In this document: one piece after another, positions 15,846 to 60,061 of the stretch
Position numbering within the stretch: position 1 is the first letter of the stretch
Layout of the letters: the number at the start of each line of letters is the position of its first letter
Source of the DNA: an uncultured bacterium
GTDB taxonomy: Bacteria > Babelota > Babeliae > Babelales > Vermiphilaceae
NCBI GenBank assembly: GCA_963707655.1
Contig: OY970172.1
Coordinates: forward strand, 256,001 to 320,000
DNA length: 64,000 bases
Reading direction: 5' to 3'
Made by a program: the position numbers and the translations under genes
Notes under the pieces: model-generated
What the model was told of the DNA's origin: nothing
The model's database searches: none
The model's input: only the letters and a program-made list of their open reading frames with translations

Positions 15846-15920
15846 GCCGGGGTAGCTCAGTGGTAGAGCGTGAGCCTGAAGAGCTCAGCGTCGTTGGTTC
15901 AATTCCGACCCCCGGCACCA
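15846..15920 (+). tRNA. tRNA-Phe(GAA)
   Basis: GCCGGGG/CCCCGGC acceptor stem, anticodon loop CTGAAGA, GGTTCAATTCC T-arm, encoded CCA. Confidence 0.96.
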
Positions 15921-16051
15921 GCCTACGCCAAGGCTACGGCTGGCGCGGCCAGTTCTTCTGAGGAAGATGATTGATGTTAATTGCAACATCGTAGGTTGTC
16001 CGTCGTAGCTTGCCAAGCCTGAAGGCATGGATAAGCGAAGACTGGACTGGC
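15918..16051 (+). repeat. tRNA-linked REP-like double-hairpin element, copy 1
   Basis: CCAGCCTACGCCAAGGCTACGGCTGG ... GTAGGTTGTCCGTCGTAGC-TTGCCAAGCCTGAAGGCATGGATAA-GCGAAGACTGGAC; homologous to copies at 34681, 56172, 59559. Confidence 0.85.
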
Positions 16052-16226
16052 ATAGCCAACAGAATGCGTTTCACTTACCTCTTATCTCTCTCTTCATTAC
16101 ATTGGATTTTATTTCTCAGTTGCTTTTTATCGCAGCACCATGTTTCATTTATGCTTGTGCTCTCATCACTTTGTATGGTATAGAATTACAAAGATTTTAT
16201 ATGATAAGAAAAAAGGTAAAGTGATT

Positions 16227-16889
16227 ATGAAGCGTGTCTCATCGGATAAATATACCATTGCTTGGTTTAAGCTTTCAGAATGCATTGCTCGTGGGGAAAA
16301 AGAACGCGCATTGGGCATGTATCGTCTATTGGCCCACTCTCTTGATAATTCCGCTTTTGCAAAGCAATTAGAGGGCGATATTTTACTGTTTTTTGATGAT
16401 AGGCAAGCGCATGAAAAATACCATGAAGCGATAAAGCTTTATCTTGGCAAACAGAGATTTTTGGAAGCGGCTATGATTTACGAACATTTATTAAGCATAG
16501 GTATAGAGCCTACATCTGATTATTATGCCGATTTGGTTGAGTGGTATACGGCGGCGCACGTTTACGACAAAGTTAAATACTACGGTTTGCAATGGACCAT
16601 GGTCTTAATTCATAAACAAGACTGGATGCAACTCGAGAAAAACATTACTCGTTTTAGCGCTCTTTTTGGGCTTGATGTCTGGGTGTGTCAATTGCGTCAG
16701 CGTATTATAGAAGCAGCCATAGCACGTCATGCCGATAGTGATAGGATAATGAATTTCATAGCTGCTTTTTTAAATGATCTTACTGCCGCCAATGACGCTC
16801 ACACCATGCAGTTTCTGCTGTCTCATCTACGCGCCACTCATACTGAATATTATGAAAAAACGTGTCAGTATATTAACGAACAGTGCTAA
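16227..16889 (+). CDS. Hypothetical alpha-helical (TPR-like) protein
   Basis: Long ORF, helical-repeat-like pattern in N-terminal half. Confidence 0.65.
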   Translation: MKRVSSDKYTIAWFKLSECIARGEKERALGMYRLLAHSLDNSAFAKQLEGDILLFFDDRQAHEKYHEAIKLYLGKQRFLEAAMIYEHLLSIGIEPTSDYYADLVEWYTAAHVYDKVKYYGLQWTMVLIHKQDWMQLEKNITRFSALFGLDVWVCQLRQRIIEAAIARHADSDRIMNFIAAFLNDLTAANDAHTMQFLLSHLRATHTEYYEKTCQYINEQC

Positions 16890-17022
16890 AAGTCTTTTTG
16901 CTTTGAACAATTCATTACATTCGCCCTTTTTATTGATTCTTTTATTTTCAATTTGATAAAATCCATTGTGGTAGTGTTTGTTGAAGATGCCAGCTCAAAG
17001 AGAAAATGAAAAGAGGGTGAAG

Positions 17023-58338: not shown

Positions 58339-58420
58339 TTTATACGCAGCCTGCTACTGGCTCTACTCTTCATGCGTAAATTCGCACAAGTTTTGGCCGG
58401 GATTAAACAATCCGTGCTTT

Positions 58421-59236
58421 TCAGTTTATCTCCAAAATCAACTGCCCGGCTTCTATAGCATAGCCACCGACCTTAATGCCATTGCTCGGATCAACATAAA
58501 TTTGCCCTACTTTGCCAAGCATGTGCCCCTGTTCAACTATGATAGGTGTCTCAAGCGCATAATGCTTGTTAAGATAAGCTCCAAGCGCACCTGCTGCTAC
58601 CCCTGTAACGGGGTCTTCATTTACGCCCGTTGAAGGATTAAATTGTCGCGCATTATAAAAATGATTATTTATTTTTACAAAAGCGTATATGCCTGTCGGA
58701 ACCAGCTCTTTTATTAATTCAAAATTTGGCCTCAAGCTCCATAGCGCTGCTATATCTTTTAACTCTACCAACAATTTTGGTGTTCCCGTAGAAACACGTA
58801 GAGGGGTATTAATTATGAATTCAGAAGCAATACCAAGCATTTGAGCAATGTCATGAGTATCATACTCTTGTTGATAAAATATCGGATTTGCTTGCTCCAT
58901 TTCTATCATACCGTCATCTTTTTTTGAGACGGATAAGATACCTGCTAGAGTTTCTTGCGTTAACGTTTTTACCGATTCATCATGATCCAGCAAATGAAAC
59001 AATGCTATAGTAGCGTGCCCACAAAGATTCATTTCTTTTTTTGGGGTAAAAAACCTTACTTTGACAGTGGCAATAGCTGATTTTTGGATAAAAGCACATT
59101 CTGAATAACCAGTTTTCTGGACAATACTCATCATCTGTTCATCTGTTAAACTATCAGCATCAAATACAATTCCTACAGGATTTCCCTGGGAACTATCGTT
59201 AGTAAATGATTTTAAAACATGTACTTTTATTTGCAT
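58421..59236 (-). CDS. PhzF family isomerase/epimerase
   Basis: GNPVGIV, SECAF, RFFTP..EMNLCGHAT, EDPVTG. Confidence 0.93.
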   Translation of the reverse strand: MQIKVHVLKSFTNDSSQGNPVGIVFDADSLTDEQMMSIVQKTGYSECAFIQKSAIATVKVRFFTPKKEMNLCGHATIALFHLLDHDESVKTLTQETLAGILSVSKKDDGMIEMEQANPIFYQQEYDTHDIAQMLGIASEFIINTPLRVSTGTPKLLVELKDIAALWSLRPNFELIKELVPTGIYAFVKINNHFYNARQFNPSTGVNEDPVTGVAAGALGAYLNKHYALETPIIVEQGHMLGKVGQIYVDPSNGIKVGGYAIEAGQLILEIN

Positions 59237-59530
59237 ATTCTTGATCTGTTCTTGAAAGCAAGGGGTTTCGCTACTGAGACAATAACAATAAATCAAACTT
59301 ATAAAAAAATACCTTGCAGGAAGGTTGAGGCTAAAGTATACCAAGATATCCCCCAAAAGTAATTTTTAAATTATCTTTTCCCTATTAGGACAAGGCATAT
59401 TGCAGGAGAAGATGTCCTCATATCTATCAATACCATAAAGAAGAGGGGGTCTAAAAGACTTAGGTTTACCAAGTTTGGGATGCAAGCAGTAGTCGCTTAA
59501 TAGCATACATTGTGCTATTTTCTATAAAAG

Positions 59531-59562
59531 AGTTGCTGAAATAGACCGATAGGGCGCACCAG
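59531..59562 (+). repeat. Direct repeat left half (filled site)
   Basis: AGTTGCTGAAATAGACCGATAGGGCGCACCAG, 31/32 identical to 62537-62568. Confidence 0.9.
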
Positions 59563-60061
59563 CCTACGCTCCAAGAGAGCTCCGGCTGGCGGTGCCAACA
59601 CTTGAGGAAAAAGAGCCACGATTGATAGCAAGAAGCGTAGGCTGTCCGCCGTAACTTGCCAAGCCGGAAGGCATGGATAAGTGCAGGCTGGACTGGCTGG
59701 CCACTCATGAAGCAAAATAGTTGCAGTCTTTATCTCACATACTTCAGTTTTCGAAAAATGGCATGTATTTTGTCTATATAATTCAATCTATTAATCATCC
59801 AGACCAAGTATATGTTGGAAAAACAACGAATCTAAAGAAGCGCTTATCTGATCATAACTGCGGAACTACTGCGCACACAGAAAAATATAAGCCTTGGAAA
59901 TTAGTAGTATATATTTGTTTTAATGATCAATTAAAAGCAATTGAATTTGAGAAATACCTTAAATCCGGCTCAGGAAGAGAGTTTAGGAATAAAAAGATTG
60001 CTATAGCTTGTGAGAGCGAAGACAGGCAAGCTTCGTCTGACTTACGTCAACAGCTCCCCTC
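59563..60061 (+). mobile_element. Putative ~500-bp hairpin plus GIY-YIG insertion element
   Basis: REP-like double hairpin (59559-59700), GIY-YIG ORF and hairpin remnant (about 60000-60045); absent from the homologous site at 62537-62601. Confidence 0.6.

Follow-up and report, generated by a model that had tools for sequence, protein, structure and literature searches.

We analysed a 64,000-nt window (the whole stretch from position 256,001 to 320,000 of contig OY970172.1, assembly GCA_963707655.1) from an uncultured bacterium of the family Vermiphilaceae (Babelota), whose 1.09-Mb genome (G000; 41% GC) is 88.6% complete and has its best named protein matches in Babeliales/Dependentiae. The CCA of three tRNA genes in the window, and that of a fourth, tRNA-type end, is followed by the same pair of hairpins. 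Judging from sequence comparison, these repeats are probably gene-less copies of a short hairpin-pair element that sits at the CCA of tRNA and transfer-messenger RNA (tmRNA) genes and was likely spread by the Slx1-type GIY-YIG nuclease whose gene adjoins the fourth copy. The comparisons establish the structure of the unit, its left end at the CCA, the existence of filled and empty orthologous sites, a tight linkage to one nuclease clade and the boundaries of a gene-bearing insert. The best reading of these data is a selfish hairpin/nuclease element aimed at tRNA ends, for which we infer both cutting and mobility.

The unit has a constant order: CCA, hairpin A, a TGGC..GCCA tail, an AT-rich spacer, then a distal arm able to pair with the start of hairpin A, and lastly an inverted hairpin B. 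Hairpin A follows the pattern NN-C-TWC-GC-loop-GC-TWC-G-NN-TGG with a 3x3 internal loop, and the window copies start as CCA-NN-CTWCGC-loop-GCTHCG-NN-TGG. A previous sequence-only reading of this DNA had placed such units at the CCA of the Phe, His and Arg tRNA genes and at GGCGCACCA (59553-59561), with none at tRNA-Pro, and inspection bore this out. The copies, the tRNA genes (called by ARAGORN) and the adjoining nuclease gene are:

15846..15920, plus strand: tRNA-Phe(GAA), host gene (ARAGORN, hairpin inspection); its CCA at 15918-15920 is the first arm of hairpin A.
15918..15951, plus strand: hairpin A of the Phe copy, with a CAAG loop, the 3x3 internal loop and the TGGC..GCCA tail.
15952..16047, plus strand: remainder of the Phe copy: the spacer, which has GAGGAA at 15960, a distal arm (15990-15998) that can pair with the start of A, and the inverted hairpin B (15998-16047), whose 25-nt loop is at 16010-16034.
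29891..29990, plus strand: stand-alone B-type hairpin mosaic with the 25-nt loop, away from tRNA genes (ends approximate).
33310..33385, minus strand: tRNA-Pro(TGG), an empty site here and in the same-genus genome (G001).
34708..34845, minus strand: His copy, with hairpin A 34790-34845 (25-nt module as loop), spacer, distal arm 34738-34747 and a degenerate B.
34843..34918, minus strand: tRNA-His(GTG), host gene.
56098..56174, plus strand: tRNA-Arg(TCG), host gene.
56172..56332, plus strand: Arg copy, with hairpin A 56172-56205, spacer, distal arm 56244-56252 and a B-type mosaic.
59559..59693, plus strand: fourth copy; hairpin A (59559-59597) has the loop TCCAAGAGA and is followed by the spacer, a distal arm (59636-59644) and hairpin B (59644-59693).
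59763..60086, plus strand: stand-alone Slx1-type GIY-YIG nuclease gene (107 aa), which runs past the usual stop of its family into an old hairpin.

Homology of the spacer in three copies and swapping of the loops, both described previously, are also present: GAGGAA and the arm CGTAGG[CT]TG recur at 15960/15990, 56211/56244 and 59604/59636, and a 25-nt module lies in hairpin B at 16010 and 59656, with a reverse-complement variant in hairpin A of the His copy and again at 29911. The proposed pairing of the CCA with the closing TGG is possible, but the TGG has a second candidate partner in the downstream (G)CCA. In DNA folding, the TGG pairs with the tRNA-type CCA at the 59555 copy and with the CCA of the tail at the Phe copy.

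Covariation was counted over 91 distinct anchored units, in 65 of which the proximal arm could be parsed. In 37 of these 65, the proximal arm complements the variable dinucleotide after the CCA (shuffle mean 5.3, maximum 12), and in 33/44 units the distal arm does (shuffle mean 10, maximum 20); in the His copy, the variable dinucleotide of the distal arm mismatches its own hairpin A. A second covariation analysis agrees for the variable pairs, and only these count, as its invariant pairs are a product of the pattern-based selection. The base after the TGG is C in 63 of the 65 units whatever the discriminator, so this sequence is encoded by the element and is not fitted to the individual tRNA. 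Rfam matches in the window were tRNAs only, with nothing above the gathering score over the hairpins in ten loci.

The repeat is far more frequent than expected by chance, with 19 matches of the strict hairpin pattern in the genome against 0-2 in each of five shuffled genomes, and 12 of the 19 lie exactly 3 nt after a tRNA CCA. A covariance model, the check that the sequence-only reading had suggested, was trained on 40 units (three of the four window copies among them). It recovers exactly the four copies listed above in the window at E<=3.7e-7 (next match E 0.68), and its 24 matches in the whole genome at E<=1 comprise 16 tRNA CCA ends, one tmRNA, four att-type scars and three sites elsewhere. 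By inspection, a unit starts at the CCA of 20 of the 38 tRNA genes, and the tmRNA carries a truncated unit. Across the 41 genomes searched, each genome has between 0 and 31 copies of the tRNA-anchored motif (reversed-pattern controls, 0-1). Hairpin copies away from tRNA genes were also seen, in the window at 29891-29990 and in the source genome at 409944, 814678 and 966208-966320; at 966287 a full unit begins at a non-tRNA CCA.

Orthologous tRNA genes may be filled or empty. Among the best 30 orthologous loci per tRNA from the 41 genomes searched, the source genome included, the unit is present in 15/30 for Phe, 6/30 for His and 15/30 for Arg-TCG. The same-genus comparison rests on one genome, G001. 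Compared with it, the source genome differs at tRNA-Thr(TGT) by a clean indel of 95 nt, which begins at the CCA and lies between near-identical flanks, and Gly-GCC and Cys show insertions after which the flanks resume; the three indels measure ~95-150 nt and lack a duplicated tRNA end. A MITE or IS would be expected to have a target-site duplication and a cognate DDE or HUH transposase; here, the ambiguity of the Thr indel is at most 1 nt, and hairpin A ends in GCCA, a possible CCA repeat; the transposase search covered the Y1 family only. Other differences between the two genomes were dropped from the clean indels: tRNA-Asp is displaced by an island in the source genome, the flanks of Ala-GGC and Leu-TAG are not alignable, and Met-CAT is possibly decayed. 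Since orthologous tRNAs are filled or empty, including the 95-nt Thr indel, the unit is not a fixed terminator; the outcome that the sequence-only reading had named as contrary to it, plain terminators fixed in all relatives, is thus not what the genomes contain.

These data bear on a host function. Hairpin A could be a terminator or a pre-tRNA processing signal spread by gene conversion, the nuclease being an unrelated passenger of a tRNA hot spot. In this sense, a terminator scan fits one of the four window copies (Phe), a T-rich run follows 28/70 A units, and two near-complete genomes have hairpins without the nuclease gene. Folding of pre-tRNAs predicts C75 and A76 to be paired downstream in 12/20 filled tRNAs, but also in 5/18 empty ones; we give it little weight because it does not cleanly separate filled from empty and the acceptor stem is broken in several. 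However, the His, Arg and fourth copies have no terminator-like site, a T-run directly follows the CCA in 31/54 empty sites anyway, the element is not adjusted to the discriminator base, empty orthologues are common, and a passenger would not be expected behind the same pair of hairpins in different phyla. We therefore regard a host RNA signal as rather unlikely.

The proposal of a non-autonomous element anchored on tRNA 3' ends is supported by the empty orthologous alleles, but it had missed the likely mobiliser, whose gene begins 70 nt beyond hairpin B in the fourth copy. This gene encodes a GIY-YIG domain (PF01541, E 1.5e-17) and is the only solo one of two PF01541 matches in the genome, the other being inside a 430-aa frame. 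An alignment of 25 family members, the window protein among them, shows no variation at Y5, Y17, R27, H31 and E63; most relatives have 79-80 aa, against 107 aa in the window. By sequence the protein is closest to Slx1 (phmmer E 5.5e-5), NCBIfam gave no match above the cut-off, and the top 11 Foldseek matches of its structure model (pLDDT 93) are all Slx1/HIGLE (TMq 0.63-0.75); its catalytic residues, too, are of the Slx1 kind.

This nuclease is closely linked to tRNA genes and hairpins. Homologues were gathered by protein similarity alone and, after removal of duplicates and of nine loci with short or stopped frames, 93 proteins were kept, 73 of which form one clade (SH-aLRT 95; the tree was a quick one, built on only 82 columns). 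We found that 57 of these 73 lie within 550 nt behind a tRNA or tmRNA gene on the same strand, at 22 kinds in all, where chance would give ~1%. The strict hairpin motif lies upstream of 52/70 clade loci, against 2/69 downstream controls and 27/3000 random windows. The hosts include Patescibacteria, Planctomycetota, Bacteroidota and Desulfobacteraceae, in addition to Babeliae. Among the 41 genomes, kin of which are not independent, the tRNA-anchored motif is present in all 25 with a nuclease match at E<=1e-10 and absent from 8 of the 16 others. Up to 4-5 strong nuclease copies occur per genome, several copies contain stop codons, and sister copies stand at different tRNAs of one genome, as Phe/Leu (L007/L008) and Arg-ACG/Arg-TCT (L067/L092). 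The window protein belongs to a group of ten, eight others of which are at tRNA-Arg genes. One further candidate, the single profile match (L381) of a Babeliales-order genome (G033), proved to be an Ssn-type GIY-YIG beside an SRM-like repeat and was left outside this family.

Other layouts were also observed. A second hairpin-A arm lies behind the gene in 11/72 loci (controls 0/69, 1/68 and 1/51), and six of the 11 repeat the tRNA 3' end as well. A second layout (L007, L008, L015, L021, L097, L101) has the order tRNA, hairpin A, nuclease, hairpin B, and then the repeated tRNA 3' end with hairpin A. At distant loci of Bacteroidota and Patescibacteria (L036, L046, L049, L052, L054, L059) the nuclease stands between tRNA copies, with a palindrome interrupting or replacing an arm. 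Two Yanofskybacteria genomes have distant GIY-YIG homologues within the 5' part of a 16S rRNA gene (L056, L057).

The surroundings of the fourth copy allow the limits of the gene-bearing insert to be set. Its features, and those of the neighbouring islands, are:

56385..59356, strand not assigned: cargo between tRNA-Arg and the scar, comprising two unassigned open reading frames (ORFs), a ParE toxin with a putative antitoxin, and a PhzF-like gene.
59466..59561, minus strand: attR-type scar; translated on this strand, it yields a tail of 31 codons that begins WCALSVYF and shares its frame with the terminal WCA of the genome's Arg-TCT serine recombinase.
60005..60052, plus strand: the 3' half, still present, of an older hairpin A whose complete form occurs in paralogous cassettes at other sites of the genome; it marks where the insert ends on the right.
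60142..62435, plus strand: polymorphic toxin (Ntox17 domain) and putative immunity gene, the nuclease unit being inserted in the head of the cassette.
62538..62567, plus strand: a further attR-type scar (core GGTGCACCA), not followed by a hairpin.

The sequence at 59553-59561 had been taken for a mimic of a tRNA end. It is instead, most probably, the core of a recombination scar: it equals the 3' end of tRNA-Arg and is joined to an orphan recombinase tail. About 25 nt before the core are conserved at seven junctions of the genome, two in the window (59539 and 62545) and five behind the tRNA-Arg(TCT) island, which encodes a large serine recombinase whose frame ends, with GKWCAR and the stop, inside the tRNA end. 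On the minus strand, 7/7 junctions read WC(A/T)LS(V/D)YF and continue for 27-35 codons. As all seven continue the integrase frame from the tRNA end, they are most likely attR scars carrying an orphan recombinase tail. Polymorphic toxin/immunity cassettes that share a leader are delimited by these junctions; the domain is Ntox17 in the window and colicin D in one paralogue. In four paralogous cassettes, at Arg-TCT, a single large hairpin A comes after the CCA, and then the leader. The window cassette retains the leader and the 3' half of this older hairpin, but A-spacer-B-nuclease (59562-60004) takes the place of its first 74 nt, as measured on the first paralogue; the right junction has an overlap of 2 nt (AG). 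The window nuclease reads 27 residues beyond the usual stop, and a related contig that lacks one base at 59991 has a stop at 60004-60006, giving the usual 80 codons of the family. Because the paralogous cassettes set both ends and the related contig stops at 60004-60006, the insert evidently spans from the CCA to the usual stop position of the family and replaces the 5' part of the older hairpin. In most other close nuclease pairs, the similarity likewise ends near the stop.

The sequencing runs listed for this DNA included none of RNA; the DNA runs contained 6-14% of the words, as short low-depth contigs. In one of these (X7) the scar is joined to the toxin leader without the nuclease unit (59569 to 60060, with 23 letters between), and in another (X4) 374 other letters stand in its place. 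They were not counted as empty alleles because either may stem from paralogous cassettes or from other strains.

The scar also raises the question of hitch-hiking, in which integrase-driven islands would bring in hairpins and nuclease while attP restores the tRNA end. The fourth copy does lie on an attR-type scar, the four Arg-TCT toxin cassettes start with an att core plus hairpin, and 6/72 nuclease loci repeat the tRNA 3' end and hairpin behind the gene. On the other hand, one integrase is, as far as is known, specific for one att core, whereas the motif is found at up to 31 sites per genome, nearly all of them tRNA-type ends. Moreover, the Thr, Gly and Cys indels of ~95-150 nt have no duplicated tRNA end, the same-genus pair suggests gain of hairpins without island or att duplication, and the scar at 62538 has no hairpin. 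Thus, we find hitch-hiking quite unlikely.

Regarding the islands themselves, the scar's tRNA end has been displaced by 3.4 kb, and the integrase families gave no match among the cargo ORFs of 56385..59356. The tRNA-Arg(TCG) and tRNA-Arg(CCT) genes lie 12 kb apart here (window 56175-64000 and beyond; source genome 312174-324311) and tens of bases apart in about ten relatives; the interval is an accreted island hot spot, with no integrase identified in it. Tandem polymorphic toxin/immunity cassettes occur at G000:C1:1006352-1017448 (L336, L337) and in the window at 59532-62567. They have leader and N-terminus in common, each ends in an attR-type scar whose orphan recombinase tail differs from the others, and they possibly form an array shuffled by the serine recombinase of the island. 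The toxin directly behind the tRNA-Arg(TCT) island (L336:11086-12987) has a colicin D domain; colicin D cleaves tRNA-Arg. Elsewhere in the window we noted three tandem paralogous ORFs of ~300 aa each, spaced 844-916 nt (24604-27239), a 36-nt AT-rich tandem repeat in three copies (8770-8885), and, between two genes, a 26-bp inverted repeat without mismatches around a loop of 9 nt (54144-54204).

A probable mechanism can be drawn from the Ssn nucleases (cd10448) and their NTS/SRM repeats (Chenal et al. 2025, PMC11893778). In that study, SsnA binds its hairpin only as single-stranded DNA (ssDNA) and cuts a few bases upstream, which is our reason for proposing ssDNA recognition and a nick here. 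By analogy with SsnA and NTS, the nuclease would bind the hairpin in ssDNA and make a nick close to the foot of this hairpin, after which recombination by the host would copy the unit to tRNA ends, the tRNA 3' end serving as homology on the left side and a short stretch of microhomology on the other. The Ssn comparison also suggests a domesticated system, in which the hairpins would mark tRNA loci and the nuclease would restrict incoming ssDNA or modulate recombination for the host without spreading the repeats. In its favour, SsnA is reported to cleave ssDNA next to its hairpin repeat and to influence transformation (PMC11893778), and the repeats studied here are located at integration hot spots. 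Nevertheless, islands have integrated at Arg-TCT, and apparently at Asp, despite hairpins after the displaced ends; the nuclease gene is patchy, multi-copy, often broken and found at 22 tRNA kinds; and eight genomes lack hairpins and nuclease alike. A domesticated system is thus unlikely in our view.

Several observations weigh against spread by the nuclease, and should be kept in mind. The evidence for cutting and movement is wholly comparative, and to our knowledge the GIY-YIG domain has no strand-transfer activity and does not join strands. A wholly empty tRNA end cannot form hairpin A, which leaves its first recognition unexplained. Two genomes, G008 (97% complete) and G034 (99%), have seven tRNA-anchored motifs each and no match to the family profile. 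The indels are unpolarised as to gain or loss and come from a single same-genus genome, and the association and covariation statistics are overstated because kin genomes are not independent. A preference for similar tRNA ends was reached in 1/1000 permutations with the Arg clade and in 154/1000 without it, and is therefore a trait of that clade only. The window copy of the nuclease, with its altered C-terminus, may be inactive. Finally, the protein has no match in phage or plasmid collections and the element pattern occurs in only two stretches of viral contigs; therefore, there is no known vehicle.

Returning to the nuclease-spread element, a broader claim can be made with less assurance, and we hold it at slightly below even chances: that it represents a distinct minimal mobile class over many phyla, in which an 80-residue Slx1-type nuclease with a recognition hairpin completed by the CCA of the tRNA places copies of itself and of its gene-less hairpins at the ends of tRNA and tmRNA genes, uses neither integrase nor transposase, and is able to overwrite older hairpins. 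Such a family bears on the open question of how short palindromic repeats spread without a RAYT; CGTC repeats, for example, seem to lack a dedicated transposase (PMC3733652). The mobility of Ssn-type hairpin/nuclease units is in print only as a hypothesis, and the present family offers a directly testable case, with an 80-aa enzyme, a defined substrate of 35-60 nt, a fixed landing point at the CCA and a filled/unfilled pair marking both ends. If the enzyme cuts ssDNA site-specifically, it would constitute a second family of such nucleases, smaller than SsnA. Likewise, if the reading is true, half of the tRNA precursors in some reduced-genome bacteria would carry a structured trailer over the CCA, and a small selfish element would be aimed at tRNA ends.

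We found no description of a tRNA-end hairpin/nuclease system in the openly readable literature, although the supplements of the Ssn paper may list such proteins. Large serine recombinase islands that integrate at tRNA genes (attL/attR) account for the scar and not for the hairpins. The stand-alone prokaryotic Slx1-like GIY-YIG proteins (PMC1564403; PDB 7WME, 7CQ2, 1ZG2) give the best sequence and fold matches and share the minimal domain; however, the accessible text of PMC1564403 describes neither tRNA-gene anchoring nor a cognate repeat for them. SegB is a free-standing GIY-YIG homing endonuclease of phage tRNA clusters that covers many isotypes and drives duplications (PMC13096335). The window family is similarly enriched beside tRNA genes of many isotypes, but SegB is a phage gene while the window protein has no match in phage collections, and a CCA-fused cognate hairpin is not mentioned for SegB in the accessible part of that source.

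The repeats had been called REP-like, yet they are not REP or REPIN in the strict sense. As in REP/REPIN/BIME families with RAYT transposases (PMC3733652, PMC3116915, PMC3337134), we see inverted hairpin doublets with a spacer, swappable loops and non-autonomous copies beside a single nuclease gene, and the arms contain GTAG/GAAG. A classical REPIN family mobilised by a RAYT (Y1 HUH) transposase is even so very improbable: no Y1/RAYT gene (PF01797) was found in the source genome, at its 88.6% completeness, the flanked gene is a GIY-YIG, and the ~20-30 copies are nearly confined to tRNA ends instead of forming dispersed extragenic families.

The closest counterpart is Ssn/NTS, with a small single-domain GIY-YIG beside its own oriented hairpin repeat and many gene-less copies; the catalytic Tyr, Tyr and Glu stand at equivalent positions in the window family, and the Ssn authors raise an IS-like origin (PMC11893778). 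The differences are also clear. The SRM pattern is absent at the window copies, and its sole match in the source genome (244946) is an A unit not near the nuclease gene. With SH-aLRT 99, four GIY-YIGs that lie next to NTS in viral contigs group together apart from the 73-member clade, in the same quick tree of 82 columns and as a proxy for cd10448 membership, and these four have another C-terminus. The word 'tRNA' has no occurrence in the main text of the Ssn paper (PMC11893778), whereas here the repeat borrows the CCA of the tRNA as its stem. In sum, the system works like Ssn/NTS and looks like REPIN, and it is a member of neither.

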